From an uncultured Burkholderiaceae bacterium (GTDB taxonomy: Bacteria > Pseudomonadota > Gammaproteobacteria > Burkholderiales > Burkholderiaceae_C): a stretch of 64,000 nucleotides of DNA. This document shows, one piece after another, positions 7,316 through 39,632 of the stretch. Position 1 is the first letter of the stretch; each line of letters opens with the position of its first letter. The notes under the pieces are model-generated. The model was not told the origin of the DNA and did not search any database. It saw nothing but the letters and a program-made list of their open reading frames with translations. A program made the translations under genes and the position numbers. The stretch covers positions 9,139 through 73,138 of the forward strand of contig CBINKC010000003.1 of assembly GCA_966251135.1 (NCBI GenBank), written 5' to 3'.

Positions 7316-7356
7316 CTGATGCAGCGCAAGAATGGGCCGCGGGCAAGGCCAAGAAT
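7316..7356 (+). promoter_or_regulatory. FNR/Anr-like box (CTGAT-GCAG-CGCAA) with candidate -10 AAGAAT toward WS/DGAT
   Basis: Box at 7316-7329; -10 at 7351-7356 places the box centre at about -40.5. Confidence 0.45.
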
Positions 7357-7508
7357 CGCGAGTGCAGTGTTTGAAACACCGTGGTGCAAACCGCAGCGAT
7401 GCCCAGCGGCATCGCGAGGATTTGCAACGCTGCCAATGGGGGCGAAGTCGCGGCCCCATAAGTGCCGATCAGTGCGAAACACTGCACTAGTGGTTGGAGA
7501 GATGCGCC

Positions 7509-8834
7509 ATGAGCACCGAAGCGATGAGCCCATTGGACGCTGCCTGGTACCACATGGACGGCGCGGCCAATCCGGCCCTCGTGACCGGCGTGGCCCTCAC
7601 CGCGCAGCCGCTCGACTCCACCCGCACGCGCCACCTCCTTCGGCATCGCCTCCTGCACTTCCCGCGCTTCAGGCAGCGCGTGGTCGAGCAGGGACTGCCC
7701 TTGCCCACCCCGCACTGGGAGGACGTGGCCCACGTCGACATGAACGGGCACGTGCGGCGTGTAGCCCTGCCGGCACCCGGCGACGAGGCCGCCTTGCGCG
7801 CACTTCTGGGCGAGCTCGCCAGCATGCCGCTGGACCGCAGCCGCCCTCTGTGGGACGCCTGGGTCGTGGACAACGTGCAGGGCGGCGGCGCACTGGTGCT
7901 GCGCTACCACCATTGCATCGGCGACGGCCGGGCAATGATGAACGTGGCCGCGCGGCTGTTCGAGCTTGGTGCCGAAGACCGTGTCCGCATGGCCGCGCAT
8001 CCGCAAGCCTCGCCCTCACCGCCCGGCCTGCTCCGGCAAGCGGGACTGCTGCTGGACGGGGCAATAACTCTGGCCAGCGCGCTCGTGAAGTCGCCTGACC
8101 CCGAATCGCCCTTCAAGGGCGACTTCGCGCCCGGCCAGCGCGTGGCCTGGTCCGAGCCGGTGTCCATCGACGACGTCAAGGCCATCGGCGCGGCAAGCGG
8201 CGCGAAGGTGAACGACGTGCTGGTCGCGGCCCTGGCCGGCGCGCTGCGCACCTACCTGCAGCGCCGCGGGCTGGATGCGGACGCCACCACCTTGCGAGCG
8301 ATGGTGCCGGTCGACCTGCGCCCGCCCGAGCGGGGCGGCGAGCTGGGCAACGAGTTCGGGCTGGTGCTGCTGGACCTGCCCGTCCAGGAGCCGTCGGCGC
8401 AGCGCCGCCTGGCGCTCACCCAGTCGCGCATGAGCGCGCTCAAGCAGTCGTCGCAGGCTACGGCCATGCGGCTGCTGCTCGATCTGTTCGGGCGCGGCCC
8501 GAAACTGCTGGAGGACCTGGCCAGCGGCGTCTTCGGCAGCAAGGCGAGCGTGGTGCTCACCAACGTCATCGGCCCTCGGCACGCGGTGCATTTCGGCGGC
8601 GTGCCGGTCGAGCGCCTGATGTTCTGCGTGCCGCACCCTGGCGACCAGCTGGGCATGGGCATCAGCATCATGAGCTACGCCGGAGCCGCCACGCTGACGC
8701 TGCTGGCCGATGCACATCTGGTGCCCGATCCGCACGTGATCGCGCAGGCGTTTCACCACGAGTTCAACGCCATGCGAGCCGCGAGGGTTGTGCCGCGGGC
8801 GTCGCGTCGGCGCGCGTCCACACCGGCGCGCTGA
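7509..8834 (+). CDS. Wax ester synthase/diacylglycerol acyltransferase (WS/DGAT)
   Basis: Catalytic YHHCIGDG (HHxxxDG), LDRSRPLW, KVNDVLVA, MVPVDLR, TNVIGP motifs. Confidence 0.92.
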   Translation: MSTEAMSPLDAAWYHMDGAANPALVTGVALTAQPLDSTRTRHLLRHRLLHFPRFRQRVVEQGLPLPTPHWEDVAHVDMNGHVRRVALPAPGDEAALRALLGELASMPLDRSRPLWDAWVVDNVQGGGALVLRYHHCIGDGRAMMNVAARLFELGAEDRVRMAAHPQASPSPPGLLRQAGLLLDGAITLASALVKSPDPESPFKGDFAPGQRVAWSEPVSIDDVKAIGAASGAKVNDVLVAALAGALRTYLQRRGLDADATTLRAMVPVDLRPPERGGELGNEFGLVLLDLPVQEPSAQRRLALTQSRMSALKQSSQATAMRLLLDLFGRGPKLLEDLASGVFGSKASVVLTNVIGPRHAVHFGGVPVERLMFCVPHPGDQLGMGISIMSYAGAATLTLLADAHLVPDPHVIAQAFHHEFNAMRAARVVPRASRRRASTPAR

Positions 8835-8837
8835 TCC

Positions 8838-8867
8838 GGTGTCCTGTCCGGACCGCGACAGGACACC
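8838..8867. other. Intergenic 11-bp perfect hairpin (ggtgtcctgtc / gacaggacacc)
   Basis: Lies immediately after the WS/DGAT stop; no U-tract, so more likely an mRNA stabiliser or processing site than a terminator. Confidence 0.5.
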
Positions 8868-8921
8868 CGTGGGTGCCGGCGACCGAGCGCCGGTTGTTTG
8901 TTCGTCAGTCCGAGGGGAATC

Positions 8922-9389
8922 ATGAAGTCCGAGCTGATACTCATCGCGAACTCGACCGAGGCGCGATTTTTCATCCGCAAGCCAGGCCAGGAGCGCTTGA
9001 CATTCCTGGAAACGCTGGAGCATCCCGAAGGCCGGCTCAAGGCCTCCGAGCTGGGCGACGACCGACCCGGCCACGGCAGCAGCGACCAGCGCCCCGGCGG
9101 TGTGCCGTTCACACCGCGCACCGACCCACACCACAAGGCGCACCTGCAGTTCGCCCACCGCCTGGCCGACCGCATCAATGAGCTCATGGCTGACGGCAGC
9201 CTCGGCGGCATCATGCTCTTCGCCTCGTCGCCCTTCCTCGGCGAGCTGAAAGCGGCGATGAGCGCGGCCGCGCAGAAGGCGGTGCACGCCACAGCGGACG
9301 TGGACCTGACCGCGGTGCCCGCAGGAGAACTCAACGCGCGATTGGGCGAAGAGCTGAGGCAGCGCGGCCGCGCTGCGGGACAGTCCTGA
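8922..9389 (+). CDS. Host attachment protein family (baeRF/AtsE-like)
   Basis: ILIANSTEARFF, LEHPEGRLKASELGDDRPG, FASSPFLGELK family pattern. Confidence 0.85.
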   Translation: MKSELILIANSTEARFFIRKPGQERLTFLETLEHPEGRLKASELGDDRPGHGSSDQRPGGVPFTPRTDPHHKAHLQFAHRLADRINELMADGSLGGIMLFASSPFLGELKAAMSAAAQKAVHATADVDLTAVPAGELNARLGEELRQRGRAAGQS

Positions 9390-9434
9390 CTGCCAGTCCC
9401 CTCTGCCGCGAGGCGGAGGACCGTGGCGCCTGCG

Positions 9435-9854
9435 CTACCCGGAAGTCCGTGATCCAGCGCGGGCGCCGTTGCGGCGCGCCGGCGCGCGCTTGGGCGCAGC
9501 CCTGCCCGCGCTGCGATGCGCCTTCATCACTTGCTCCAGCCCTTCGGCGGTGCCTCGCAGAACCTGCTGCACAGCCTGCAGCACCAAGCCGCCGATGTCA
9601 CGCGCGACGAGCACGGGCTCCTGGGTGGAGACCTTCGCAAGCGCCGTTTCCAGCGTCTGCGACACCATGCGCCGAACCACCTTCGCGATCTCGCCCTCGA
9701 TGGCTTGCAGCTCCTTCATGGTGGCCGCGATCTCGCGCTTGAGCACCCGCATGTCCGGGCTGCGCGCGGAGCTTGCGCGTGTGGTGGTCGCCGCCTTGCG
9801 CCGTGCGGTGCCCGCCGTGGAGGTGCCCGTCGTCGATCTGGATGCAGTGGCCAT
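9435..9854 (-). CDS. Hypothetical helical protein with basic low-complexity termini (DUF6781-like)
   Basis: GAGGAG RBS; amphipathic helical core (EIAATMKELQAIEGEIAKVVRRMV...LRGTAEGLEQ); Arg/Ala-rich tails. Confidence 0.6.
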   Translation of the reverse strand: MATASRSTTGTSTAGTARRKAATTTRASSARSPDMRVLKREIAATMKELQAIEGEIAKVVRRMVSQTLETALAKVSTQEPVLVARDIGGLVLQAVQQVLRGTAEGLEQVMKAHRSAGRAAPKRAPARRNGARAGSRTSG

Positions 9855-9928: not shown

Positions 9929-9970
9929 ACACTAGGCGTGCGCCTGCCTATTTGGATTGATGCGCGTCAG
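9929..9970 (-). promoter_or_regulatory. FNR/Anr-like box (TTGAT-GCGC-GTCAG on +) with -10 TAGTGT on the minus strand
   Basis: Box at 9957-9970; -10 at 9934-9929 places the centre at -41.5 (class II spacing), upstream of the 9854 gene. Confidence 0.6.
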
Positions 9971-10115
9971 CCGCAAGACACCGGCCCTGGCAAGGTCTCG
10001 CCGTGTCGCGCATCCGCCACGGCGCTTACACGGCAAACACGATGACTCCTACCATGAGTCGCGCCGGCTGGGGCGCCAGCCAGCACCTTCATGGTCAACA
10101 ACAGGAGTACCGACA

Positions 10116-10688
10116 ATGAAACGCTTCATCGCCACCGCGGTTGCTCTCACCGGCATGGCCTTTTCCGCGAGTGCATTGGCCCAGGGCTACGTCGGTGTGT
10201 CAGCCGGCCGCTCGCGCATCGACCTCGACTGCGCCGGAACCACGAGCTGTGATCGCACCGACACCGGCGCCAAGATCTTCGGCGGCTACATGTTCATGCC
10301 GAACTTCGGTGCGGAGATCGCCTACTACGATCTGGGCAAGGCGGAGGTCACCGGTGTGGATTCCACATTGGGCACAGTGACCGGCTCGCTGCGTGGCAAG
10401 AGCTTCGGCGTCTTCGGCGTAGCCGCCGCGCCATTCGGACCGTTCTCCGTGTTCGGCAAGCTGGGAGCCGTGTCGACCAAGGCGGAGGTCGAGGCCAGCT
10501 CGGCGTCGCTGGGCCTCGGCGGCAGCGACTCCGAGCGCAAGACGAATCTGGGATGGGGCCTGGGCGCCTCCTACGAGTTCACGAACAACATCGGCGTGCG
10601 GGCCGAGTTCGAGCGGATACGCGTCGAGTTCGCCGACGACAAGGACGACGTGGATCTCATCACCCTCGGCGTGCATTACCGCTTCTGA
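10116..10688 (+). CDS. Outer-membrane beta-barrel protein (OmpA-like transmembrane domain)
   Basis: Signal peptide ending ALA; GAKIFGGYMF.PNFGAEIAYYDLG; C-terminal GVHYRF (BAM signal). Confidence 0.88.
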   Translation: MKRFIATAVALTGMAFSASALAQGYVGVSAGRSRIDLDCAGTTSCDRTDTGAKIFGGYMFMPNFGAEIAYYDLGKAEVTGVDSTLGTVTGSLRGKSFGVFGVAAAPFGPFSVFGKLGAVSTKAEVEASSASLGLGGSDSERKTNLGWGLGASYEFTNNIGVRAEFERIRVEFADDKDDVDLITLGVHYRF

Positions 10689-10730: not shown

Positions 10731-11336
10731 TCACGAACCGTTCTGGCCGCCCGGCGTCTTCTTCGCAGGCACCGGTCTGGCGCGAGGCAGCGGCGGCATG
10801 AGCACCTCGCCGTTCGGGCCCCATTCCACATGGGTGATGCCGGGTTCGATGTCCTCCAGCCGGCGGCGCTCGGCCTCTTCCGCGCCGAGCTCGCCGCGGT
10901 GCACCCGCATCGCGTCCGCGAGGGTGCGTTGTTCTCGCAGCGCCCGCGCGTGGCTCAATGCCGCCTGCACGTGCTCGATCACCTGTTCCGTCTGCCAGGG
11001 TTTGACGAGGTAACGGAACACCCCCACGTCGTTGACGGCCCGCATCACCGTCTGCAATTCGCACGAGGCACTGAGCACCATGCGCACGGCATGCGGCTGC
11101 AGCGCCGACAGGCGGCGCAGGAACTCCAGGCCGTCGAGCTGCGGCATACGGTAATCGCACAGCACGGCGTCCCAGCGCCGCTGCCCGGCCAGCGCGATCG
11201 CCTGTAGCGGATCGCACTGGGCGTCGATACGCAGCGAGCAGCCGAAGTGCTGCCGCAGCAGGCGCTGCAGCGCCGCGATGACATGGGGTTCGTCGTCCAG
11301 AAGCAGCAGGCGCGCTAGATCGGTGTCGGTGGTCAT
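10731..11336 (-). CDS. Response regulator (REC plus short C-terminal extension)
   Basis: LLLDDE, VLCDYRMP, MVLSA, YLVKPW. Confidence 0.9.
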   Translation of the reverse strand: MTTDTDLARLLLLDDEPHVIAALQRLLRQHFGCSLRIDAQCDPLQAIALAGQRRWDAVLCDYRMPQLDGLEFLRRLSALQPHAVRMVLSASCELQTVMRAVNDVGVFRYLVKPWQTEQVIEHVQAALSHARALREQRTLADAMRVHRGELGAEEAERRRLEDIEPGITHVEWGPNGEVLMPPLPRARPVPAKKTPGGQNGS

Positions 11337-11338
11337 GG

Positions 11339-12670
11339 TCAGCTCCTGACGTGCAGAACGAGTTGCAGGCCCTCGCGCCGCTCGTAGTTGCAGATGCGCT
11401 GGATGAGGTCGTAGCTCAGCGCCTGGTCGGCGGCGAGCAGTACCACGCCTTCGGCAGAAACGAAGTCGTGCGCGAGCACCATGCCGGCTTCCAGTTGTCC
11501 GGTCATGAGCAGGCGTGGCGGCGTGAGCGGCCCGGTCCGGGAACGGCGGGCCGGTTCGGTGATCTGCAGGAAGACCTCCAGCACCTCCGGATCGAACTGC
11601 GTGCCGCGCCCGCGTGCGAGCAGCATTCGCGCCTGCTGGAAGCTCAGCGAGGCCACGACGATGTGGCCGAACTGCATGTCGTCGAAGGTGTCGGCCACGG
11701 CGAGGATGCGCGCACCCAGCGGGATCTCCGTGCCGGTGCGGCGATCGGGGTAACCCTGCCCGTCCCAGCGCTCATGGTGCGAGCGCAGCAGCGCGGCCAC
11801 GCGCTGCATGTCATCCAGCGCCATCAACATCTGCTCGCCCAGCACGGGATGCTTTCCGTACTGCGCCTGCTCCTGTGGGCTCATGCGCGGCACCGGCCGT
11901 GCGATGAGCGCATCGGGCATGCCGATGAGCCCGATGTCATGCAGCAGGCCGGCGATGAAGATCTCCTGCACGTCGGAGTCGGGCAGCGCCATGGCCTGCG
12001 CGATGCGCCGGGCGGTCTCGGCCACGCGGCGCGCGTGGCCCACGAGGTGTCCGCCGCGCAGCTCCTGCAGGTTGGAGAAGGCCCTGATCGACGCCAGGTA
12101 GTTCCTCTTCAGCCGCTCATGGGCCTGCGACAGCTCCGCCGTGCGTTCCTGCACGCGCTGCTCCAGGCAGGCGTTCAGCTCGCGCAGCGCCTCGTTCTGT
12201 ACCCGGGTGAGCGCCTCCAGCCGGTCCTTCTCGCGCTGCAAGGCGCTGCGCTCCATCGCCTGCCGCACGGCAAGGAACAGCTCGTCGTCGTTCCAGGGCT
12301 TCTCGATGTAGCGCCAGATCTGCCCGCGGTTCACCGCGGCGGCGATCGACGCCACCTCCGCATGGCCTGTCAGCAGCAGCCGTACCACTTGCGGCCAGCA
12401 CTGCGCCACGCGCTCGAGCAGCTGGGCACCGTCCATGCCCGGCATGCGCATGTCCGACACCACCACGTCCACCCGCTCGTGCTCCAGCACTTCCAGCGCC
12501 TGCTCGGCGCCCACCGCGGTGAGCACCTTCCAGCCGCCCCGGCGCAGCAGGCGCCGGAGCGCGGCGAGGATGTTGACCTCGTCGTCGACGCAAAGCAGCC
12601 TGAACTCGCCAGCGTCGTCGCACGGCGCCTGCGCCACGTCATCGGGGACGAGGATCTGCCCGTCCATCAC
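11339..12670 (-). CDS. REC-HD-GYP c-di-GMP phosphodiesterase
   Basis: REC (CVDDE, VVSDMRMP, KPW); HD-GYP motifs GHARRV, LLHDIG, HHERWDGQGYP, AVADTFD. Confidence 0.9.
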   Translation of the reverse strand: MMDGQILVPDDVAQAPCDDAGEFRLLCVDDEVNILAALRRLLRRGGWKVLTAVGAEQALEVLEHERVDVVVSDMRMPGMDGAQLLERVAQCWPQVVRLLLTGHAEVASIAAAVNRGQIWRYIEKPWNDDELFLAVRQAMERSALQREKDRLEALTRVQNEALRELNACLEQRVQERTAELSQAHERLKRNYLASIRAFSNLQELRGGHLVGHARRVAETARRIAQAMALPDSDVQEIFIAGLLHDIGLIGMPDALIARPVPRMSPQEQAQYGKHPVLGEQMLMALDDMQRVAALLRSHHERWDGQGYPDRRTGTEIPLGARILAVADTFDDMQFGHIVVASLSFQQARMLLARGRGTQFDPEVLEVFLQITEPARRSRTGPLTPPRLLMTGQLEAGMVLAHDFVSAEGVVLLAADQALSYDLIQRICNYERREGLQLVLHVRS

Positions 12671-13551
12671 TCTGTCAAGTTTTCGCGCCGCACCGGCAGC
12701 ACCACGCGAAAGGTGGTGCCCCGGCCCAGCTCGCTACGCACATCGATGCGCCCGCCATGCTTCTTGACAATGCCGTACGACAACGAGAGGCCCAGCCCCG
12801 TGCCCTTGCCCACGGGCTTGGTGGTGAAGAACGGATCGAAGATGCGCGACAGGTTCTCCGGTGCGATGCCGCTGCCGTTGTCGCCCACCTCCACCCACAC
12901 CTGATCGCCCTCGGCGCCGGTGCGCAGGGTGATGGTGCCCCGCTCCGCGGTGATGGCATGCGCCGCATTGACGAGCAGGTTGAGGAACACCTGGTTCAGC
13001 TCGGACGCCAGGCACTGCACCTCGGGCAGCGCGCCGTACTGCTTGACGACATCGGCCTTGTACTTGATCTCGTTATTGACGATGTTGAGCGTGGAGTCGA
13101 GCCCGGCGTGCAGGTCGGCCCACTCCCACTCCTGATGCGTCTCCACCCGAGAGAAGTCCTTCAGGTCCTGCACGATCTTGCGCACCCTTGAGATGCCGTC
13201 ACGCGACTGGGACATCAGCGCGGGAATGTCCTCCTTGAGGAAGTCGAGCTCGATGTCCTCGCGCAGCGCCTTCAGCGCCGCTGCGTGTGGCGTGCCGGCC
13301 AGCGAGGGCTCGGCCTTTTCGTAGGCGGCGAGCACCCGGAACACGTCTTCGAGGTATTTCTCCAGCGTGCCGAAGTTGGAGAAGATGTAGCCGATGGGGT
13401 TGTTGATCTCGTGCGCCACACCCGCGGCCAGCTGGCCGATCGACGCCAGGCGCTCGGACTGCAGGGCCTTGGCCTGCGCCTCGGACAGGCGGGCATTGAG
13501 CGCCTTGAGCTCTTCGTTGGCGTGTTGGAGTTCTTCCACGGTCTGGGTCAT
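12667..13551 (-). CDS. Cytoplasmic histidine kinase without a sensor domain
   Basis: H-box VAHEINNP; N-box NQVFLNLLVNA; G1 DNGSGI; F-box FDPFFTTK; G2 GTGLGL; only a short coiled coil precedes the H-box. Confidence 0.9.
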   Translation of the reverse strand: MTQTVEELQHANEELKALNARLSEAQAKALQSERLASIGQLAAGVAHEINNPIGYIFSNFGTLEKYLEDVFRVLAAYEKAEPSLAGTPHAAALKALREDIELDFLKEDIPALMSQSRDGISRVRKIVQDLKDFSRVETHQEWEWADLHAGLDSTLNIVNNEIKYKADVVKQYGALPEVQCLASELNQVFLNLLVNAAHAITAERGTITLRTGAEGDQVWVEVGDNGSGIAPENLSRIFDPFFTTKPVGKGTGLGLSLSYGIVKKHGGRIDVRSELGRGTTFRVVLPVRRENLTE

Positions 13552-13559
13552 CGCATCCC

Positions 13560-14393
13560 CTATGGGTTCAATGCATTGCAAAGGCCGTCCAGCTCCTGCT
13601 CGACGCGCTCGAAGATCTCGCGGCATTGCTCGGCCGACAGGCCCAATCGCATCCATGTGGGCACCGACAACGGCGGCACCGCCTCGCTGGGCAGTCCCGA
13701 CAGGTCGAGCCCATGGGCGATGTTGTCGGCCACATGAACCAAGTCCACGAGGTTCGCCGGCCCCTGCGCCTGGGGGGCATGGTGTTGGCGGATGGCCAGG
13801 ATCACGGGCACCGCGAAGCACCAGTGCTCGGCGATGCATGCACCCAGCTCGCAATGGTCGGTGCCGAGCACGGCCTGCTCGGCCTCGTGCGTGAGGCAGT
13901 CGTGTTCGGCCTGGTAGTGCAGCGTCTGCGCGAACTCGCCGGGGAAATGGCTGGCCAGCGCCAGACGACCGATGTCGTGTACCAGCGCAGCCGTGAACGC
14001 CGTGGCTTCATCCATCTGCAGCACGCGTGCGATGGCCTGCGCGCACAAAGCGCTTCCGATCGAGTGGCGCCAGTGAGCGTCGAAATCGAACCCTTCGCAC
14101 TGGATCCTCGGGAAGCGACCCGCCACGGCCGCCGCGGCCAGCGCGCCGCTGAGCGTGCGCAGCCCCAGCACGTTGATCCCGTCGCGTATCGAGCCCACCC
14201 GGCCTGCGACACCGTAGAAGGAGCAGTTCGCCAGGCGCAGGGTCTTGGCCGCCAGCGCCTCGTCCTGGGAGATCTTGAGCGAGAGCTGGTCCACTGCCAC
14301 GTCGTCTCGCTGCAGGGCGAGCAGCACCTCGGTCAGGACCCGCGGCAGCGGCGGCAACTCGCGCACACGGTCGATGAGTGCGTCGGCTTTCAT
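13560..14393 (-). CDS. HDOD domain protein
   Basis: LPPLP, DEALAAKTLRLANCSFYG, HWRHS, ALVHDIGRL, DHCELGACIAEHW; start re-assigned to ATG 14393. Confidence 0.9.
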   Translation of the reverse strand: MKADALIDRVRELPPLPRVLTEVLLALQRDDVAVDQLSLKISQDEALAAKTLRLANCSFYGVAGRVGSIRDGINVLGLRTLSGALAAAAVAGRFPRIQCEGFDFDAHWRHSIGSALCAQAIARVLQMDEATAFTAALVHDIGRLALASHFPGEFAQTLHYQAEHDCLTHEAEQAVLGTDHCELGACIAEHWCFAVPVILAIRQHHAPQAQGPANLVDLVHVADNIAHGLDLSGLPSEAVPPLSVPTWMRLGLSAEQCREIFERVEQELDGLCNALNP

Positions 14394-14602
14394 GGCGCCA
14401 CCTCCCGGTACTGCATCAGCAGGGTCAGCAGCGGGTGCGACTGTCCCTGGCGCAGCGTGTGGCGAAACAGCCACCGCAGCCGCGTCGCGACGGCGGCCGC
14501 CGCGGGTAGCAGCAGTTCGGGACCGGGACCGGGACCGGGACCGGAACCGGGATCGAGACCGAGACCAGGGTCAGGGTCTCGGTCTGTACTCGTCGTTGTC
14601 AT
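14390..14602 (-). CDS. Small protein with a Gly-Pro low-complexity N-terminus, overlapping the HDOD start
   Basis: GGAG RBS; 4-bp overlap with HDOD; C-terminal RLRWLFRH...LLTLLMQYR helix. Confidence 0.5.
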   Translation of the reverse strand: MTTTSTDRDPDPGLGLDPGSGPGPGPGPELLLPAAAAVATRLRWLFRHTLRQGQSHPLLTLLMQYREVAP

Positions 14603-14670
14603 TGGTACTCCCTTGTCGGTTCTCTTTGTCTGTCAGAGCAAATGAGATCCTTCTGTGTGCGTCTCGCCTT

Positions 14671-17586: not shown

Positions 17587-17716
17587 GCTGCATCTCCCTG
17601 CTCACCTCGGCGTCAGACTGCCACCGCCCGCGTGTCCGGCCTGAAGGTCGTGTAGGTCGTGTAGGTCGTGAAGGCTTGCATGAGCTGGGCCACCGGATGC
17701 GTCAACCGCCTTGCGT

Positions 17717-19273: not shown

Positions 19274-19340
19274 GGTTTCTCCGTAGCACCGCCTCTGCCA
19301 GGCGGATGCATTTCGCTTGATGCCGAGATCGCGGCGCCGT

Positions 19341-27100: not shown

Positions 27101-27171
27101 CAGGCCGTTCAGGGTACGTCGATTGCTCCAGCGTTTGCACGCCGCCGCGTCCCCATTGAAAGGAATGCTCC

Positions 27172-27578: not shown

Positions 27579-27619
27579 TTGATCTGCGTCAGCGCGCGGG
27601 TTGAATCGTCCCCTACCCT
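27579..27619 (+). promoter_or_regulatory. FNR/Anr-like box (TTGAT-CTGC-GTCAG) with -10 TACCCT
   Basis: Box at 27579-27592; -10 at 27614-27619 places the centre at about -40.5; upstream of the small ORF-acs-pdh-ACP operon. Confidence 0.62.
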
Positions 27620-27754: not shown

Positions 27755-27871
27755 ATGAACAAGCCCACAGACCTATTCGTCCTGGAGGTCGTGATCTCGC
27801 TGGTCAGCGCCGTCCTCATCTCCGCCTTGCTGTTCGAGCCCATCGCCGAGATGGTCCGTGGCTTTTGGTGA
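27755..27871 (+). CDS. Unannotated 38-aa single-TM small protein
   Basis: [38 protein letters not shown]; GGGAG RBS; nearly all codons end in G/C; too short for the ORF track. Confidence 0.65.
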
Positions 27872-27912: not shown

Positions 27913-29654
<1,742 letters not shown>

Positions 29655-29658
<4 letters not shown>

Positions 29659-31591: not shown

Positions 31592-32748
31592 TCGAACTGC
31601 GCATGCCTTCGTTCGGTGCCGACATGGACAACGCCGAGTTCGTGAAGTGGAACGTCGAGCCCGGCCGGCCCGTGCGACGCGGCGAGATCGTCGCCGTGGT
31701 CGAGACGCAAAAAGGCGCCATCGATGTGGAAACCTGGCAGGACGGCACCGTGGCGCGGCTGATCGCCGAGCCGGGGCAGCGCATTCCGGTGGGCCAGCTG
31801 CTGGCGGTGTTCGCGGGAGAGGGTGAAGACTGGCGGGCCGTTGCGGCGGTGGCACCCGCTGCAGGTGCTGAACCGGCCGCGGCCGCGCCCACTCCGACCC
31901 CGGCCTCAGCGGCGCCAGGACCTGCCGTGCCCGCGGGCGAGGCGGCGCCGATACGGGCATCGCCGGCCGCCCGCAAGCATGCGGCCGAGCTGGGCGTCGA
32001 CCTGGCGCGGCTCGCCCGCCGCAAGGGTGTGGAGCCGATCACCCTCGAAGACGTGGAACGCGCCGCCGCCACGGCCACATCGCCCACCGAGAGCATGCGC
32101 GCAGCGATTGCCGCCGCCATGGCCCGCTCCAAGCGCGAGATCCCGCACTACTACCTGGGCACCGAGCTGAACGCCGAGGGCGCCTTGCGCTGGCTGGAGG
32201 GCTACAACGCCCGGCGGCCGGTGACTGAACGGGTACTGTTCGCCGCGCTCGCAATGAAGGCCATCGCCAGGGCCGTGCCCGAGGCGCGGCAGCTCAACGG
32301 CCGCTATGTCGATGGCCGCTTCGATCCCTCCAAGGCCGTGCACCTGGGCGTGGTCACTGCGCTGCGCGGCGGCGGCCTGGTGGTGCCCACTGTGCATGAT
32401 GCCGATCGGCTCTCGCTGCCTGATCTCATGGCCGCGCTGCGCGAGGCGTTGTCGCGCGCTCGCAGCGGAAAGTTGCGCAGCTCCGACCTGGCCGATTCGA
32501 CCCTCACCGTCACCAACCTCGGCGATCTCGGCTGCGACACCGTCTATGGCGTGATCTACCCGCCACAGGTGGCGCTGGTGGGCCTTGGGCGCGTGATGCC
32601 GCGTCCGGTGGTGCAAGACCAGCTCGTGGTCGCGGCCCGCACCATCCACATCACCCTGGCCGCCGATCACCGCGCCAGCGACGGCCTCATCGGCGCATCC
32701 TTCCTGGCCGCAGTGCGCGAACGGCTATCGCATCCGGAGGATCTGTGA
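31588..32748 (+). CDS. pdhC: Dihydrolipoamide acetyltransferase E2
   Basis: Lipoyl domain (VETQKG), E3-binding domain (ASPAARKHA), catalytic TNLG and DHRASDG. Confidence 0.88.
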
Positions 32749-33035
32749 GCACCGTCACCCAGACCATCCGCCAGGCGATCATCGACGCCGTCCTGCAGAT
32801 TGCGCCCGAGGCCGATTTCGCGCGAGTGGATGCGAAACGTTCGCTGCGCCAGCAACTGGACATCGACTCTTTCGATTTCCTCAATCTGCTGATCGACCTG
32901 CACGCCAGGCTGGGGGTAGAGATCCCCGAGGCGGATTACGCGAAAGTGGACACGCTGGAGGCGATGGAGGGGTATCTGGCGGCGCGGGGCTCCGAAGGCG
33001 AGCGCTGGTTCGCCGTGATGTCGTCGCGTGCGTGA
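32745..33035 (+). CDS. Acyl carrier protein
   Basis: LDIDSFDFLNLL phosphopantetheine-Ser motif, GVEIPE; GTG start overlapping the E2 stop. Confidence 0.88.
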   Translation: MSTVTQTIRQAIIDAVLQIAPEADFARVDAKRSLRQQLDIDSFDFLNLLIDLHARLGVEIPEADYAKVDTLEAMEGYLAARGSEGERWFAVMSSRA

Positions 33036-33040
33036 CGCCA

Positions 33041-33282
33041 TTCGGGCTGAGCTTGTCGAAGCCCCTTGCCCGCCTGCGCAGGCCCTTCGACAAGCTCAGG
33101 GCGAACGGGACCGCCGTAGTCCTCTACACCGTTCGGGCTGAGCTTGTCGAAGCCCCTCGCCCACCTGCGCGAGCCCTTCGACAAGCTCGGGGCGAACGGG
33201 ACCGCCGTGGTCCCCTACACCGTTCGGGCTGAGCTTGTCGAAGCCCCTCGCCCACCTGCGCGAGCCCTTCGACAAGCTCAGG
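33041..33282. repeat. Tandem REP-like palindromic repeats, 91-bp period (2.7 copies)
   Basis: Units start at 33041, 33132 and 33223; each has arms ttcgggctgagcttgtcgaag / cttcgacaagctcagggcgaa. Confidence 0.9.
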
Positions 33283-33302: not shown

Positions 33303-33749
33303 CTACTTGACGACGAGCACCGGCATCTTCGCGAGCGACAGCACGTGCGAGGTCTGGCTGCCCAGGAGCGCCGAAGCCGCCGCGCCCCGCCCTCGCGACG
33401 CCATGACGATGAGATCGCAACCCTCAGACTCCGCGTGGCGCACGATCTCCTCATACGGGTAGTCGCTCACCGCCACCCGCGGCTCCACGCGGGCCTTCGC
33501 CGGGACCTGCCGCTGCAAAATCTCCTGCAGCCGCTCACGACCGCCCTGCGCAAGCTGCCCGCGCAGTGTGTCCAGGTTCGGGCCGTTGGAGAACACCGCC
33601 CCGACCACATCATGCGTGCCGTAGTCGGGCACCACCATCAACGCCGTCACGCGCGGCGCACCGCAAGCGGCCGAGAGCCGCAGCGCCGCAGCAACCGCCT
33701 TGTCGGCGAGCGCGGAGCCATCCGTCGCGACGAGGATGTGCTTGAACAT
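33303..33749 (-). CDS. Universal stress protein
   Basis: MFKHILVATDGS, DLIVMASRGRG...LLGSQTSHVL. Confidence 0.93.
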   Translation of the reverse strand: MFKHILVATDGSALADKAVAAALRLSAACGAPRVTALMVVPDYGTHDVVGAVFSNGPNLDTLRGQLAQGGRERLQEILQRQVPAKARVEPRVAVSDYPYEEIVRHAESEGCDLIVMASRGRGAAASALLGSQTSHVLSLAKMPVLVVK

Positions 33750-33753: not shown

Positions 33754-34197
33754 CTACTTCACCTGCAGTCGGTTGATGTACTCCAGCAGCGCGAGGATGC
33801 GGGCTCGCACATACGCCTCAGGATCGTAGGGCACATCGATGTAGTACTCCGCCGCCTGCACGCGATAGTCCTGTCCCCATATGGGCATGTCGCGCGCACC
33901 GTGCGAAGGCACGTTCGCACCTTCGATCACCTCGTACAGCCGGCTCATCGGAAAGACACCGTTGTTGTTCTTTGTGAGCACCGTGAGGTCGGGTGGGGCC
34001 TTGCGCAGCAACTCAACGACAAAGCCCTTGCCTTTGCCGTCCGTGCCGTGGCAGGCGGCGCAGTTCGACTCGAATTCGCGCTTGCCGAAATCGACCCGCA
34101 CATCCCGCGACTGCGCCTGCGCTCTGGGCTGGGCCGGCGCCGCTGCGCTGACCACCACGCATAGCGCCCCGATCGCCACCGTCGAAGCAGTGCCCAT
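33754..34197 (-). CDS. Periplasmic monoheme cytochrome c
   Basis: Signal peptide; CAACH heme motif; HGARDMPIWG with distal Met. Confidence 0.88.
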   Translation of the reverse strand: MGTASTVAIGALCVVVSAAAPAQPRAQAQSRDVRVDFGKREFESNCAACHGTDGKGKGFVVELLRKAPPDLTVLTKNNNGVFPMSRLYEVIEGANVPSHGARDMPIWGQDYRVQAAEYYIDVPYDPEAYVRARILALLEYINRLQVK

Positions 34198-34309: not shown

Positions 34310-34323
34310 TTGATGCTACGCAA
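34310..34323. promoter_or_regulatory. FNR/Anr-like box TTGAT-GCTA-CGCAA
   Basis: Sits between divergent cytochrome c-USP and kinase-like genes; candidate minus-strand -10 CATGCT at 34288-34283 (centre about -40.5). Confidence 0.5.
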
Positions 34324-34415: not shown

Positions 34416-35525
34416 ATGCGTGGCACCATGCACAGGTTCCCCAAGATCCAGCCTCCGCATGCCGCCCCACGCGCCATGACGCCCCCTTCCACCGCACTGC
34501 CTGCCGCCGAGGCCCTGCCGGGGCTCGATGCCAAGGTGCAGTTCCTGCGCACGCCGGCCGCCCACCAGGGACTCGTGACGCAGGTGTTGTCCATCGAGAC
34601 CCACATGTCATGGGTGTTCCTTGCCGGCAACCACGTGCTCAAGCTGAAGAAGCCCGTGCGCCTTCCCTACCTCGATTTCTCCACCGTTCAGGCGCGTGAG
34701 TTCGACTGCCGCGAAGAGGTGCGCCTCAACGCCCGGCTGGCTCCCGGCGTGTATCTGGGCCTGCGCGCGCTGCAATGGCACCAGGGCTGCTTCGCGCTGC
34801 TGCCACCCCAGGCGCTGCCCGCACCTGGGCATACCGTGGACTGGCTGGTACTCATGCAGCGCCTGCCCGATGCACGCATGCTGCATCACCTGGCCCGCCA
34901 GGGCTGCGTGCAGGAAACCGAGGTGGATGAACTGCTCGCGCGACTCGGCGCCTTCTACCGTGGCGCCACCCGCGTGGGCGTGACCGCCGACGAGATGCTC
35001 ACCAGGCTGCGACGCGAGCAGGCCGTCACGCGCGACGTGCTGTTGCGCCCGCAGTTCAGCGTGAGCGACGCGGCCCGCGCCCTGGAAGGTATGGACCGCG
35101 CACTGTGCCGGCACGCCGGCCTGCTGGCCGAACGATGCGCGCACGGCCACATCGTCGACGGCCACGGCGACCTGCGCCCCGAACACGTTTGCCTGGTCCA
35201 GCCGCCAGTGGTCATCGACTGCCTCGAATTCAACGCACAGCTGCGGCAGGTCGATCCCGTCGACGAACTGGCTTTCCTGGGCCTGGAGTGCGCGATGGCC
35301 GGCGCCCCGTGGATCGGCCCACGGCTGATCCACGGCCTGGCGCTGTACCTTGGCGACCGGCCCGCACCGGAACTCATCGCGCTGTACACCGCCCAGCGCG
35401 CCCTGCTGCGCGCACGACAGGCCCTTGCCCACCTGCTCGATCCCACGCCGCGCACGCCTGCAAAGTGGGCGCCGCTCGCGCAGGAGTACGTACAACGGGC
35501 GCTAGTGCAGTGTTCGATGCTGTAA
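34416..35525 (+). CDS. Aminoglycoside-phosphotransferase-like kinase (N-terminal domain of the bifunctional APH/AAA family), stand-alone
   Basis: IETHMSWVFL, KLKKPV...LDFST, EVRLN.RLAP, DGHGDLRPEH, IDCLEFN...D.VDELAFL; no C-terminal P-loop; true start may be 34428 or 34476. Confidence 0.75.
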   Translation: MRGTMHRFPKIQPPHAAPRAMTPPSTALPAAEALPGLDAKVQFLRTPAAHQGLVTQVLSIETHMSWVFLAGNHVLKLKKPVRLPYLDFSTVQAREFDCREEVRLNARLAPGVYLGLRALQWHQGCFALLPPQALPAPGHTVDWLVLMQRLPDARMLHHLARQGCVQETEVDELLARLGAFYRGATRVGVTADEMLTRLRREQAVTRDVLLRPQFSVSDAARALEGMDRALCRHAGLLAERCAHGHIVDGHGDLRPEHVCLVQPPVVIDCLEFNAQLRQVDPVDELAFLGLECAMAGAPWIGPRLIHGLALYLGDRPAPELIALYTAQRALLRARQALAHLLDPTPRTPAKWAPLAQEYVQRALVQCSML

Positions 35526-35729: not shown

Positions 35730-36623
35730 TCAAAACGGCACGACATCCGTTGGGTACTTCCACATGTCCTTCAACAAGTAGCTCATCGGCAATGACAGCA
35801 TTGAATTGCGCGGCGGGATCGGCCTCATGAACCAGCGCTGGTAGAAGACATGCATCTCGCGTGCGTAGATCATGCGCTTCATTTCGTCATCGATGATCTT
35901 CTTAAAGATCGAGTCGTTTTTCGACATCATGATCGCCAGCGCTTCAATGGTCAGGAACTTGCCCACGACCTTGTACTTCGACGGATTGCGTTGCGCTGCA
36001 ATCAGGCCATAGAGCAACACATCGTCCATCACGAAACCGTCGGCCTTCCCTGACGCCACCATATCGAAGGCGCTCGAGTGATCCGCCGCCTCGATGACCT
36101 TGATGCCCAGCAGTCGTTCGCGGTTGACCTGGTCGATGGCTCTCAGCGGCGTGGTGCCCTTGGTCGACACCAGCTTCTTGCCCTCGAACCCGCGCAGGTC
36201 CCTGATGCCACTGTCGGCGCGCACCAGGAACCGGGCCCCGGTGATGTAGTGGGGAACGGTAAAGGCCACCTGCTTGCGGCGCTCGGCGTTGTTCGTGGTC
36301 GAGCCGCACTCGAGGTCCGCCTGGCCTTGCACCACCGCATCGATGCGGTTGGAGGGAGTCACCAACATGTAGTCGACTTCCAAGGTCTTCATGCCCAACT
36401 TGGTGCGCACCACCTCGGCCAGATGCCGGCAGATGTCGACCGCGTAGCCCACCGGCTTCTTTTCCTCGTCCAGATACGAGAACGGGACGGAAGATTCCCG
36501 GTAGGCAATTGTCAACTTCCCGGTCTTTTGGATGCGATCGAGTACTTCACCCGCATGCAGCGAAACTGCGGCCGTGCCGAGCACAAGCCCGGCGAAGATC
36601 CGGGGTACCAATGCGATGCGCAT
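35730..36623 (-). CDS. Amino acid ABC transporter substrate-binding protein (GltI-like), orphan
   Basis: AYRESSVPFSY, ADLECGSTTNNAERRKQVAF, STKGTT, FVMDDVLL; no permease genes nearby. Confidence 0.9.
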   Translation of the reverse strand: MRIALVPRIFAGLVLGTAAVSLHAGEVLDRIQKTGKLTIAYRESSVPFSYLDEEKKPVGYAVDICRHLAEVVRTKLGMKTLEVDYMLVTPSNRIDAVVQGQADLECGSTTNNAERRKQVAFTVPHYITGARFLVRADSGIRDLRGFEGKKLVSTKGTTPLRAIDQVNRERLLGIKVIEAADHSSAFDMVASGKADGFVMDDVLLYGLIAAQRNPSKYKVVGKFLTIEALAIMMSKNDSIFKKIIDDEMKRMIYAREMHVFYQRWFMRPIPPRNSMLSLPMSYLLKDMWKYPTDVVPF

Positions 36624-37209
36624 AGAGGCTCCTTCTCCCGAGAGGTGTTAACAGTGACTTGAGGTGAACTACTCCTTGCACCTGCATGTGACAGCCATGC
36701 GGAACGTGAGCTAGCAAGAAGGGCGCCACCGAGGCGAAGTCTCGCACGGAAGTGCGCAACGTCTGCCCGGTCCACGGGCATTTTCGGGACTTGTTATCGA
36801 TGACGCGGGGCGCCATGCGGCCTGAGACATCAGGAATTCAAGGGAAGAGACCAACCGGCAGATATCGGAAAACTCCAGCCCGCAGAGGTCGGAATTTGAA
36901 CGTCATGTCTAAAAGAGATGAGTCCGGCAGAGATTGGCATTGCGCCTGCACGGCAATGTGATCGAGACTTTTCTCGATTTCAGTGAATTCGTGCTTGATG
37001 CCGATCCAAGTCGCGATGCGAGTTGAATAACGCGTCAGCCTCGCAGGCAAAGCTGCAGGCGATTCGTCGCGAGTCGAACTTTCGGCCGCGGAGCCTTGCA
37101 CTCATCTCGCCGTATGAACCCTGTTGCGGCGGCAGAAGCGGGCGCGCACTGGGCGCGCTCTGGGTCATGGCCGAGATTGCAGCATCGGCGCCACAGCGAG
37201 CGAGGCTCG

Positions 37210-37223: not shown

Positions 37224-37305
37224 AACTCACAAAGCCGGGTTCGTTCCCAATTCCCGTCTTGAGGCAGTGCCCTCTTTCTTCTCATGTCAACAGGAACAAA
37301 CCATC

Positions 37306-37908
37306 ATGCAAGTCCGCAAGACAACCGCTCGCGCGATCCTGGCTCTGGCCGCTCTCGGCGGCATCGCTATGCCCGTTGCCGCGCAGGAAAGTCCCTGGCT
37401 CGTGCGGGTGCGCGCCGTCAACCTCGACAGCGCCAACAAGGATTCGACCGGGCTCGACCTCTCGATCAACGACAAGGTGATCCCGGAAGTCGACATCACC
37501 TACTTCCTCACACCCAACCTCTCGGCAGAACTCGTCCTCACGTATCCGCAAAAGCACACCCTCAAGGCGGGCGCCGCCGAGATCGGCTCGCTCAAGCATC
37601 TGCCGCCGACTCTGACGGCGCAGTACCGCTTCACCGGGCTGGGCGCCTTCACGCCGTATGTCGGCGCAGGCCTGAACTACACGCGCTTTTCGAGCGTGAA
37701 CCTGCCGGCCGGCGTGAGCATCGACAAGAACAGCTTCGGCCTGGCCGTGCAAGCGGGCGTGGACGTTCCCCTGAGCAACCAGCTGTCGCTGAACTTCGAC
37801 CTGAAGAAGGTCCAGATCCGCACCGATGTCAGCGCGGGCGGCGCCGAGATCGGCAAGTTCAAGGTCGATCCCCTGCTCGTCGGCGTGGGAGTGGGCTGGC
37901 GCTTCTGA
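37306..37908 (+). CDS. ompW: Outer membrane protein W
   Basis: WLVRVRA, IPEVDITYFLTPNLSAELVLTYPQKH, LPPTLTAQY, C-terminal GVGWRF. Confidence 0.93.
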   Translation: MQVRKTTARAILALAALGGIAMPVAAQESPWLVRVRAVNLDSANKDSTGLDLSINDKVIPEVDITYFLTPNLSAELVLTYPQKHTLKAGAAEIGSLKHLPPTLTAQYRFTGLGAFTPYVGAGLNYTRFSSVNLPAGVSIDKNSFGLAVQAGVDVPLSNQLSLNFDLKKVQIRTDVSAGGAEIGKFKVDPLLVGVGVGWRF

Positions 37909-37953: not shown

Positions 37954-38433
37954 TTAGCGGCAGCCCATGCTGCCGCAGTGGGTGAGCGCGGTGTCCGGCA
38001 GGCAGCCGGACACTTCGCCGGTCAGGGGGTCGAAGCCCACCTGGGCCATGTGAAACGCCAGGCCGGCATCCATCATCTGCGCGTGGGCGGGGAACCACTG
38101 GGCGAGTTCGCCCAGCAAGATGGACAGCGGCTCGCGACGGTCTTCCTCGCAGGCCAGGCGCAGCACCTCGCGCATCATGTCGAGCACCATGGTGTGCTGG
38201 CGGGCATGGCAGTTGTCAGGCGAGAAGCCGGTGGCGCACATCCAGCGGTCTTCCTGGCCGAAATGCTCGACGGTGTGCTCGAGCAGCCGCTCGAATGCGG
38301 TCAGCACGCGAGCGAAATCGCCTTCATCCTGGGCTCGGTTCACGTCACCGAGCAGTTCGACGAACTCCTCATGCGTGCGGTCCATCTGGGGCTGGTTCAC
38401 CCGCAAAGCTTCGGTCCAGACGAGTGCAGTCAT
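37954..38433 (-). CDS. Hemerythrin-like di-iron protein
   Basis: MD.TH, EHF..E, H..QH, H...MD iron-ligand pattern. Confidence 0.88.
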   Translation of the reverse strand: MTALVWTEALRVNQPQMDRTHEEFVELLGDVNRAQDEGDFARVLTAFERLLEHTVEHFGQEDRWMCATGFSPDNCHARQHTMVLDMMREVLRLACEEDRREPLSILLGELAQWFPAHAQMMDAGLAFHMAQVGFDPLTGEVSGCLPDTALTHCGSMGCR

Positions 38434-38464
38434 GACTTGGCGACTTCAAGCTGAGTAGCCCGGC

Positions 38465-38506
38465 AGGCTAGCGGCCGGGCCGGGCCATGTCCTTGCGATG
38501 GCTCAA
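38465..38506 (-). promoter_or_regulatory. FNR/Anr-like box (TTGAG-CCAT-CGCAA) with -10 TAGCCT for hemerythrin
   Basis: Box at 38493-38506; -10 at 38470-38465 places the centre at -41.5. Confidence 0.6.
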
Positions 38507-38522
38507 GGGGAGCGGGGGCGAC

Positions 38523-38798
38523 TAGTGTCGTGAGTTGGACATACGTGGCATTTCGACGGGCCGAAACGGGGATGAGCGCAAGGCGCACAGCCGGGTCGAT
38601 ACCGGGTGGTATCGACCCGGCTGGGCAACGCGGCGATCGCCCCGTGTCGGCCCGCCCCGTAGGGGTTCGGCCAGATGGCGCCCTCGCGCGACCGTCGAAA
38701 GGGGTCGATACCACCCGGTATCGACCCCTTTCGCCCGCCGCACGATCATCACCATCTGGTCGAATCGAAATGCCACGTATGTCCAACTCACGACACTA
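38523..38798. mobile_element. MITE-like non-autonomous element with 34-bp perfect terminal inverted repeats (TA ends)
   Basis: TAGTGTCGTGAGTTGGACATACGTGGCATTTCGA at 38523-38556 and its exact reverse complement at 38765-38798; two internal 16-17 bp hairpins; no transposase. Confidence 0.75.
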
Positions 38799-39566
38799 CG
38801 CCGGCACGGCGTAATGCGCTTCGCTCAGCAGGTCGATGCCGCAGGGCAGCGTCTGGATCCAGTCGATGAACTCGCCTACCGCCGCGCCCATGATGGGCGA
38901 GCCGTGCTGGGGAACCAGCATGTCGATGCTCAGCTTGCGCACCATCTGCGCCCAGAGCCGCAACACCTTGTTCGACACCATGTAGCGCCGATGGAAGGCT
39001 TCCATGCGGTGCAGCTGGCCGGCCAGCGAGGTGATGGGGCGCTGGGCCTCGGCGCCGGTGCCCATCGACACGCCGAGGTCGCCTGAGAAGAGGATGCGGC
39101 TCGCCGGGTCGTAGAAGTGGAAGTTCCCCTCCGAATGCAGGAAATGCGCCGGCAAGGCGATGAGTTCGCCACGGCCGATGCGGATGCGCATGCCCGCATC
39201 CGGGATGCCGACGATCCGCCCGGCCGTCTTGCCCGGTTTGCAGAAATGTGGAGCGAAGCGCTCCCAGACGCGGGAGATGTAGAGCTTGGCCCCGGTGGTG
39301 GCCGTCATCCAGCGGTCGAGAGAGGCAATGATGTCGGGGTCGGCGTGCGAAGCGAGGATGGCCGACAACTGGTGCGGCGGGAAGTGCCGCGTCATCGACA
39401 GGTACAGATCGGTGTACGCGAGGTTGCCGCCCGGATCGATGATGGCGCCCGTGTCCCCGTTCACGACGAGGAACTGGTTGGACTGCACGGCTTCACCGCC
39501 CTCGTCGCACAGGTCGGTGAACATGAGGCACTGGTGGCCGTCGTAATTGAAAAGTTCGATGGGCAT
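38796..39566 (-). CDS. ODP-like oxygen-binding di-iron metallo-beta-lactamase-fold protein
   Basis: SNQFLV, IIDPGG, SHADPD, AHFLHSEGNF, LFSGD, VPQHG; no flavodoxin domain; start re-assigned to ATG 39566. Confidence 0.8.
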   Translation of the reverse strand: MPIELFNYDGHQCLMFTDLCDEGGEAVQSNQFLVVNGDTGAIIDPGGNLAYTDLYLSMTRHFPPHQLSAILASHADPDIIASLDRWMTATTGAKLYISRVWERFAPHFCKPGKTAGRIVGIPDAGMRIRIGRGELIALPAHFLHSEGNFHFYDPASRILFSGDLGVSMGTGAEAQRPITSLAGQLHRMEAFHRRYMVSNKVLRLWAQMVRKLSIDMLVPQHGSPIMGAAVGEFIDWIQTLPCGIDLLSEAHYAVPA

Positions 39567-39591
39567 CGGGCGCCGGTGTGCAAAGCTGCGC

Positions 39592-39632
39592 ACTGTACGG
39601 AGGGCCCCTGCCTGCGCCTTGCTCCAGATCAA
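39592..39632 (-). promoter_or_regulatory. FNR/Anr-like box (TTGAT-CTGG-AGCAA) with -10 TACAGT for the ODP gene
   Basis: Box at 39619-39632; -10 at 39597-39592 places the centre at about -40.5. Confidence 0.65.

Follow-up and report, generated by a model that had tools for sequence, protein, structure and literature searches.

The locus

The stretch of DNA studied here (the window) covers 64 kb of contig CBINKC010000003.1 from an uncultured Burkholderiaceae bacterium, and our subject is a set of intergenic boxes resembling the FNR/Anr site TTGAT-N4-ATCAA that precede genes scattered along it. An initial annotation had joined seven such boxes into one hypoxia programme run by a CRP/FNR regulator encoded elsewhere. 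We find eight box-bearing units and consider it likely that a class II activator from the FNR branch of the CRP/FNR family drives them, most probably at low oxygen. The window has 67% G+C, its proteins have their nearest matches in Aquincola, Piscinibacter, Ideonella and Aquabacterium (Rubrivivax-Leptothrix group, Burkholderiales), and soil and rhizosphere metagenomes contain DNA near-identical to it.

The gene map is based on Pfam and NCBIfam matches, start codons read from the sequence, and independent gene calls on contigs 99% identical to the window. The genes of the box-bearing units are:

6198-7160, minus strand: PRPP-synthetase-like protein (ribose-phosphate diphosphokinase, prs-like; Pfam, NCBIfam), ATG at 7160
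7509-8834, plus strand: WS/DGAT (Pfam)
8898-9389, plus strand: Host_attach (baeRF12) protein (Pfam), in the same operon as WS/DGAT (7509..9389)
9435-9854, minus strand: 139-aa protein without family match, with basic low-complexity ends and a helical core
27913-29658, plus strand: acs (Pfam, NCBIfam)
29655-30620, plus strand: PDH E1 alpha (Pfam, NCBIfam)
30617-31591, plus strand: PDH E1 beta (Pfam, NCBIfam)
31588-32748, plus strand: PDH E2 (Pfam, NCBIfam)
32745-33035, plus strand: ACP (Pfam, NCBIfam)
33303-33749, minus strand: universal stress protein (USP; Pfam, gene calls)
33754-34197, minus strand: cytochrome c (Pfam, gene calls)
34476-35525, plus strand: kinase-like protein, 349 aa, in some sources an aminoglycoside phosphotransferase family enzyme
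37306-37908, plus strand: OmpW family outer membrane protein
37954-38433, minus strand: bacteriohemerythrin (Pfam, NCBIfam)
38796-39566, minus strand: ODP-family di-iron metallo-beta-lactamase-fold protein

From acs through E1 alpha, E1 beta and E2 to ACP, consecutive genes overlap by 4 bp. The label "DUF6781-like" given earlier to the gene at 9435-9854 has been dropped, as the protein has no Pfam match even at E <= 1 and no NCBIfam match. The box-bearing units are interspersed with unrelated operons for c-di-GMP signalling, chemotaxis, sulfation and copper export.

Boxes and -10 elements

The eight boxes are listed below, each followed by its -10-like hexamer with the distance from the box centre. 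Scores in bits come from the independently learned position weight matrix (PWM) described in the next section. L168, L172 and L175 are contigs of a close relative, all from one Joint Genome Institute (JGI) sample, that are syntenic with the window at 83 to 89% DNA identity (~86%).

7246..7259, minus strand: box TTGACGGGGCGCAA, prs-like gene; 14.6 bits; identical in L172
7219..7224, minus strand: -10-like TAGTGT, 28.5 bp from centre; predicted transcription start site (TSS) ~7212; kept in L172 though the spacer differs
7316..7329, plus strand: box CTGATGCAGCGCAA, WS/DGAT-Host_attach operon; 11.9 bits; CTGACGCAGCGCAA in L172
7351..7356, plus strand: -10-like AAGAAT, 28.5 bp from centre; predicted TSS ~7363; kept in L172
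9957..9970, minus strand: box CTGACGCGCATCAA read towards the 9435-9854 gene (TTGATGCGCGTCAG on the plus strand); 13.0 bits; TTGATGCGCATCAG in L172, 1 mismatch, nearer consensus
9929..9934, minus strand: -10-like TAGTGT, 29.5 bp from centre; predicted TSS ~9922; kept in L172, spacer 1 bp shorter
27579..27592, plus strand: box TTGATCTGCGTCAG, acs operon; 13.5 bits on the minus strand, 11.3 on the plus strand
27614..27619, plus strand: -10-like TACCCT, 28.5 bp from centre; predicted TSS ~27626
34310..34323, no single strand: box TTGATGCTACGCAA on plus, TTGCGTAGCATCAA on minus, between the divergent cytochrome c-USP and kinase-like genes; 15.7 bits in the plus orientation (towards the kinase-like gene); identical in L175
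34283..34288, minus strand: -10-like CATGCT, 28.5 bp from centre towards cytochrome c-USP; predicted TSS ~34276; CAAGCT in L175
37210..37223, plus strand: box TTGACTTGCGGCAA, ompW; 17.1 bits; TTGATTTGCGGCAA in L168, nearer consensus
37246-37251, plus strand: weak -10 candidate CCCAAT, ompW
38493..38506, minus strand: box TTGAGCCATCGCAA (TTGCGATGGCTCAA at 38493 in the initial list of seven), hemerythrin gene; 12.3 bits
38465..38470, minus strand: -10-like TAGCCT, 29.5 bp from centre; predicted TSS ~38458
39619..39632, minus strand: box TTGATCTGGAGCAA (TTGCTCCAGATCAA at 39619 in the initial list of seven), ODP gene; 20.7 bits, the top PWM match in the window
39592..39597, minus strand: -10-like TACAGT, 28.5 bp from centre; predicted TSS ~39585

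All seven boxes named at the outset are present as 14-mers at their coordinates, all are intergenic, and they carry 1 to 3 mismatches to TTGAT-N4-ATCAA. The six -10 hexamers named with them are there as well, each on the gene side of its box and 28.5 or 29.5 bp from the centre. With the -10 placed at -12 to -7, this spacing puts the box centre at -40.5 or -41.5; in class II FNR promoters (E. coli FNR, Anr), the box is centred near -41.5. A hexamer of the form xAxxxT stands at one of these two distances at seven of the eight sites, the exception being OmpW.

When we scanned the window for a box with <=3 mismatches followed by a -10 at the class II distance, 19 matches were returned, among them six of the sites already listed and a new one on the minus strand at 7246-7259. 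This site lies 52 nt 5' of the prs-like ATG and shares a divergent intergenic region with the WS/DGAT box. The earlier target list, whose seven boxes are real, had overlooked it. That list also assigned the 34310 box to cytochrome c-USP, and a correctly spaced -10 is indeed found on that side; the divergent kinase-like gene is a possible second or alternative target, with no -10 at the class II distance on its own side.

Enrichment and an independent motif

Allowing <=2 mismatches, TTGAT-N4-ATCAA occurs 20 times in the window versus 7.7 expected, and none of 100 shuffles reaches 20. Similarly, TTGA-N7-CAA occurs 9 times versus 2.75 expected (0/100 shuffles), five of the nine at the promoters listed above. 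The CRP consensus TGTGA-N6-TCACA, used as a control, is not enriched in the window (13 versus 18.4 expected). A CRP/Vfr (cAMP) regulon was rejected, since none of the eight promoters carries TGTGA-N6-TCACA except for a chance overlap at 37216.

To avoid circularity, we learned a motif from other genomes only. A scan with the acs protein against species-representative genomes and a scan with the ODP protein against metagenome contigs gave 80 loci each, and expectation-maximisation was run from random 16-mer seeds on 148 non-redundant regions upstream of the acs and ODP orthologues. The resulting de novo motif, TTGA[C/T]-N4-N[T 0.69/G 0.22]CAA, has 16.7 bits and occurs in 64% of the 148 sequences. 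Unbiased motif discovery on the orthologous promoters of other genomes thus recovers the same box, in agreement with the original assignment of the sites to the CRP/FNR family. In 57/86 of the same promoters, TANNNT is placed at 28.5/29.5 bp from the centre of the box, and it occurs almost nowhere else (44/54 for ODP orthologues alone), which indicates class II geometry and bears out the position first proposed for the window.

Applied to the window, the independent PWM places the eight sites among its 13 best matches, with scores of 11.9 to 20.7 bits. It yields 14 window matches of at least 12 bits versus 4.0 expected. Nine of the 13 best distinct PWM sites are intergenic, in a window where intergenic DNA makes up 12.8% (binomial P = 4e-6).

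Half-site variants

The boxes had been described as deviating recurrently in their right half-sites, and this pattern is real: six sites carry xGCAA as their promoter-proximal half-site. Over all eight, GCAA occurs alone at five sites, TCAG alone at two, and both together at 7316. The xGCAA variant is kept across species at the hemerythrin promoter and recurs at the WS/DGAT promoters of L174 (Ideonella) and L179, while the TCAG/CTGA variant (7316, 9957, 27579) recurs in relatives and falls outside the FixK2 consensus. As published, that consensus is TTGA/C-N6-T/GCAA, which accommodates GCAA (PMC9104804). Five of the eight sites match it exactly (7246, 34310, 37210, 38493, 39619), the other three having CTGA/TCAG at one end. 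Judged by sequence, the boxes fit a FixK2-type consensus better than the strict FNR/Anr consensus. The box of this lineage would then be a relaxed, FixK2-like form with T or G at the fourth-last position, and half of the sites would go undetected if the strict FNR consensus were used for scanning.

Conservation in relatives

The contigs of the close relative cover every promoter but that of acs. Box and -10 are kept at each of these seven, and two boxes, the 9957 site and that of ompW, are nearer consensus there. Across six alignable intergenic regions, 108/112 positions of the box half-sites and -10 elements are identical (96%) versus 760/942 other intergenic positions (81%; Fisher P = 5e-6).

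Conservation extends to more distant genomes in which the gene order differs. The ODP box, identical in contig L168 of the close relative, has a counterpart with <=2 mismatches at the equivalent position in ~45/80 metagenomic ODP loci. The hemerythrin box is kept amid different neighbours in L168, L170 (Aquincola), L171 (Piscinibacter) and L178; in Aquincola sp. S2, Piscinibacter terrae and a third genome it reads TTGA(G/C)CCA(C/T)CGCAA or TTGCGATAGCGCAA. Its -10 is GCTAGCCTG in L168, L170 and L171 and TAGGCT in L178, and the spacer diverges. Contigs with the exact hemerythrin protein were left out of this footprinting, being 99 to 99.8% identical to the window.

WS/DGAT orthologues are found in three different box-preceded operons: unknown-WS/DGAT-USP (L173), Hsp20-WS/DGAT (L174, Ideonella) and USP-WS/DGAT (L179). 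The box is followed by TAGACT or TAAACT at 28.5 bp in L174 and L179, and L173 has two boxes. At the acs cassette, ~40% of the loci are boxed, essentially the proteobacterial ones, with TTGAY-N4-RTCAA upstream. Orthologues of the prs-like and kinase-like genes lie in box-preceded operons with correctly spaced -10 elements in L176 and L177, and the two genes are repeatedly found in each other's company, along with NAPRTase, CBS proteins, a ribosome hibernation factor and Lon. Distant orthologues of six families (hemerythrin, WS/DGAT, ODP, acs, prs-like, kinase-like) are thus boxed in non-syntenic contexts, consistent with the earlier view that these genes form one stress or low-oxygen set. Homologues of the other target families within the 160 acs and ODP loci were too few for comparison.

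The regulator

No CRP/FNR gene was found in the window by tblastn, in keeping with the claim that the regulator is encoded elsewhere. In L173, a 248-aa CRP/FNR-family gene lies directly 5' of acs, at 11 bp, in a cluster with USPs and WS/DGAT. Its product matches the Fnr profile from position 38 on and has an ESVSR recognition motif and no N-terminal cysteine cluster. Regulators near acs cassettes elsewhere have C-X2-C-X5-C (L015), C-X2-C-X7-C (L013) or no cluster (L062, L069), and all have ETVSR. From these protein sequences the FNR branch of the family appears clear.

L173 (1-12177) also holds, within 12 kb, a compact version of genes that are scattered in the window: two USPs, the CRP/FNR regulator, acs-PDH-ACP, a histidine kinase behind a TTGACTCAGATCAA box, a GGDEF protein, and the unknown-WS/DGAT-USP operon.

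Other features of the window

The remaining genes and ORFs placed on the map are:

10116-10688, plus strand: OmpA-like beta-barrel
10731-27510, mixed strands: response regulators, HD-GYP, histidine kinase, HDOD, PAS-GGDEF-EAL, methyl-accepting chemotaxis protein (MCP), sulfotransferase, chromate transporter, APS kinase, copper P-type ATPase, DUF326
27755-27871, plus strand: possible 38-aa membrane ORF, 5' of acs
35730-36623, minus strand: solute-binding protein

The signalling cluster at 10731-19273 (response regulator, HD-GYP response regulator, histidine kinase, HDOD, PAS-GGDEF-EAL-REC, MCP) is syntenic in L172; it could tie c-di-GMP and chemotaxis to the same conditions, yet it is box-free. 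Further upstream, an SBP56 family protein (selenium-binding/methanethiol-oxidase family) is encoded at 3154-4845 (E = 2.5e-177), with DUF6776 and Transgly_assoc as neighbours. No Pfam model covers the very large family of the kinase-like protein (>7900 matches at E <= 1e-30), and the kinase-like gene repeatedly adjoins the prs-like gene (L004, L176, L177, L028, L078), in L176 also NAPRTase. This association suggests a conserved nucleotide or NAD salvage module in stress loci.

Further matches lie elsewhere in the window. The region's best match to the strict FNR consensus, TTGATGCCGATCCA at 36995-37008 (1 mismatch), was set aside as a promoter element; it is an orphan, with no gene at a sensible distance downstream. 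It sits in a ~400-bp, less G+C-rich stretch that is located between the solute-binding-protein gene and ompW and cannot be aligned with the SBP3 locus of L175. At 51231-51244 (minus strand), TTGATCTGCGTCAC is nearly identical to the acs box and lies 48 bp 5' of a LysR-family gene, and also 5' of a divergent LigB/VanA aromatic-degradation operon. It was rejected as a class II site for want of a -10 at the class II distance. Finally, TTCATGGTCAACAA at 10088-10101, TTCATGGTCAATAA in L172, lies just 5' of the ribosome-binding site of the OmpA-like beta-barrel gene.

Small repeats and inserted elements occur between several of the units:

38520-38795: insertion of 276 bp resembling a miniature inverted-repeat transposable element, with 63-nt terminal inverted repeats and internal palindromes, located between the ODP stop codon and the hemerythrin promoter
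7357-7495: second small inserted element, ~139 bp in the WS/DGAT leader just 3' of the predicted TSS, with a 19-nt inverted repeat at its bounds (7354-7372 / 7477-7495)
33041-33282: tandem array between ACP and USP, 2.7 copies of a 91-bp palindrome-containing unit (GCTGAGCTTGTCGAAGC...CTTCGACAAGCTCAG)

The 276-bp insertion is absent from L168, where the intergenic region is 88 bp, and contigs 99% identical to the window differ there by ~64 bp. In L172, 15 bp stand in place of the leader element. The array is absent from L175; it has the highest depth in the rhizosphere metatranscriptome contigs, evidently because the repeat is common to many organisms.

Interpretation and alternative explanations

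We propose the following mechanism. The boxes would be bound by a dimeric FNR-branch activator (FNR/Anr, FixK or Dnr type, with an E--SR recognition helix) encoded outside the window. Bound ~41 bp 5' of the predicted TSS, the dimer would overlap the -35 region and recruit RNA polymerase to promoters that have a -10 but no usable -35. Once active, the regulator would switch on the prs-like gene; WS/DGAT and Host_attach; the small 139-aa protein; acs-PDH(E1 alpha, E1 beta, E2)-ACP; cytochrome c and USP, perhaps with the kinase-like gene; OmpW; hemerythrin; and ODP. Known regulons (lxa, Anr, FixK2, Accumulibacter FNR) are our ground for inferring the oxygen signal, a single regulator and the TSS positions; the type of regulator and the activating role of the sites are likewise predictions. 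Sharing one kind of box at the activating position, the eight units very probably make up an ordinary low-oxygen stress regulon of the kind known from Burkholderia, Pseudomonas and Bradyrhizobium.

Several observations weigh against this proposal. The 27579 box lies ~330 bp from the acs start versus an orthologue median of ~106 bp, and the small ORF between them (27755-27871) has no conserved counterpart in the loci retrieved. Only when read towards the kinase-like gene does the 34310 box score well, while the correctly spaced -10 is only on the cytochrome c side. OmpW has no canonical -10 at the class II distance, only CCCAAT. Four sites (7246 and three from the initial list) deviate at 3/10 positions of the strict FNR consensus. 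Rhizosphere metatranscriptome contigs, from related organisms, cover the genes thinly, and three of them extend 42 to 83 nt 5' of the predicted ODP TSS, giving no support; the contigs are assembled, low in depth and unstranded, with uninformative ends. Lastly, the regulator is not in the window, and acs-adjacent regulators elsewhere occur with and without a cysteine cluster and so do not point to one sensor type.

The sites could be genuine CRP/FNR sites and still answer to a signal other than oxygen or to more than one regulator, for example a haem-based Dnr/NnrR-type nitric oxide (NO) sensor acting on the GCAA boxes (hemerythrin, ODP, OmpW, prs-like, WS/DGAT) and a paralogue acting on the TCAG boxes (9957, 27579). 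The two recurrent half-site variants, xGCAA and GTCAG, would fit such a division, as would the retention of CGCAA in hemerythrin orthologues, where L178 reads TTGCG-N4-CGCAA. Hemerythrin and ODP are di-iron proteins of the gas-binding kind, NnrS lies beside a hemerythrin gene in L179, the L173 regulator and two other acs-adjacent ones lack the FNR cysteine cluster, and several paralogues related to Anr occur in Burkholderia (PMC3721108). Yet one de novo motif, with T/G at the variable position, spans both variants and matches a single published FixK2 consensus (PMC9104804), and the 7316 site unites both variants in itself. Pfam annotation finds no denitrification genes in the window, and the gene families fit oxygen-limitation regulons. 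Taken together, we regard this explanation as unlikely.

It seems hardly credible that the boxes are chance matches or parts of sigma-70 promoters with no dedicated regulator. TTGAC/TTGAT does resemble the -35 consensus, several sites are 3 mismatches off the FNR consensus, and the window has 139 matches at <=3 mismatches. But the TTGA half-site lies ~29 bp from the -10, not 17 bp, and on this spacing we rejected the reading of TTGAC as a -35. A second half-site, CAA, is kept at fixed spacing, the enrichment and intergenic bias are significant, and the sites are selectively conserved in relatives and recur 5' of distant orthologues. It is also conceivable, though very unlikely, that only the ODP, hemerythrin, acs, prs-like and WS/DGAT sites work and that those at OmpW (37210), 9957 and 34310 are kept merely by the closeness of the relative. 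These three were compared only with the ~86%-identical relative, and OmpW lacks a good -10. Against this, the independent PWM gives them 13.0 to 17.1 bits, they are rightly placed 5' of the OmpW, USP and cytochrome c families, which are known Anr/FixK2 targets or lxa members, and the boxes in L172 and L168 are nearer consensus rather than further from it.

Control of all eight units by an FNR-branch activator, which we prefer, would provide a testable regulon assignment for ~17 genes of a rhizosphere Burkholderiales bacterium. These include genes of no known function, namely those for the Host_attach protein, the 139-aa protein and the 349-aa kinase-like protein, as well as WS/DGAT and the acs-PDH-ACP cassette, which are not usually tied to oxygen limitation in Gram-negatives.

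The cassette (acs of PRK04319 type, E1 alpha, E1 beta, E2, ACP) has no E3 gene and is translationally coupled in the window. Most of the 80 genomes have the same five-gene order, little altered and with Acs identities of 63 to 78%; they belong to Proteobacteria, Acidobacteriota, Planctomycetota, Nitrospirota, Chloroflexota and Myxococcota. The literature searched contains no description of the cassette. A doubtful possibility is that an Fe-S-free, FixK/Dnr-like regulator drives a dormancy-like programme in which acs-PDH-ACP, with its dedicated ACP, and WS/DGAT jointly deposit neutral lipid under hypoxia. If so, the lipid would be a carbon and electron sink and the system a Gram-negative counterpart of DosR-tgs1, with the cassette an uncharacterised low-oxygen metabolic pathway.

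Comparison with known systems

In Mycobacterium tuberculosis, the DosR dormancy regulon includes the WS/DGAT triacylglycerol synthase tgs1, USPs and a phosphoribosyltransferase-type gene under hypoxia. The likeness is a functional analogy only, with no family relationship: DosR is a LuxR-type response regulator with an unrelated motif.

The lxa locus of B. cenocepacia has TGA-N6-TCA at 17 intergenic points and shows 2- to 240-fold low-oxygen induction (Sass et al. 2013, PMC3721108). It carries USPs, cytochrome c551, a cation ATPase and PHA (polyhydroxyalkanoate) genes, and its proposed regulators are Anr-related (PMC3721108). The window resembles it in belonging to Burkholderiales, in its many intergenic TGA-N6-TCA boxes over tens of kb, in its USP and cytochrome c and in having storage-polymer genes among the targets, and the Anr-related CRP-family control proposed for lxa is similar to what we propose here. 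However, lxa is a compact 50-gene block with six USPs, Hsp20, PHA genes, ackA-pta and its own CRP-family regulators, whereas the window has scattered units, one USP and no regulator, and is not a contiguous block of the lxa type. Its cargo also differs, comprising WS/DGAT, acs-PDH-ACP, OmpW, hemerythrin and ODP; this comparison with the BCAM genes is one of families.

In B. diazoefficiens, FixK2-dependent genes associated with boxes such as TTGACCTAGCGCAA encode USP, host attachment protein, Hsp20 and cytochrome c (PMC9104804). The consensus admits GCAA, three of these families (USP, host attachment protein, cytochrome c) are shared with the window, and FixK2 has no Fe-S cluster, like the L173 regulator next to acs. 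In contrast, the FixK2 system is alphaproteobacterial and FixLJ-driven, and neither FixLJ nor FixK was identified in the window.

Among the targets of Anr in P. aeruginosa are USPs, the microoxic hemerythrin Mhr and OprG, a member of the OmpW family (PMC13086522). [quoted passage not shown] The published Anr and Accumulibacter FNR regulons therefore contain the ompW, USP and hemerythrin families that the initial annotation called typical FNR targets. With Anr/FNR the window shares the TTGAT-N4-ATCAA box and the hemerythrin, OmpW-family and USP targets, but every window box is 1 to 3 bases off the strict consensus. Apart from WS/DGAT and the E3-less cassette, this is an expected kind of regulon, and a less unusual one than the initial annotation held.

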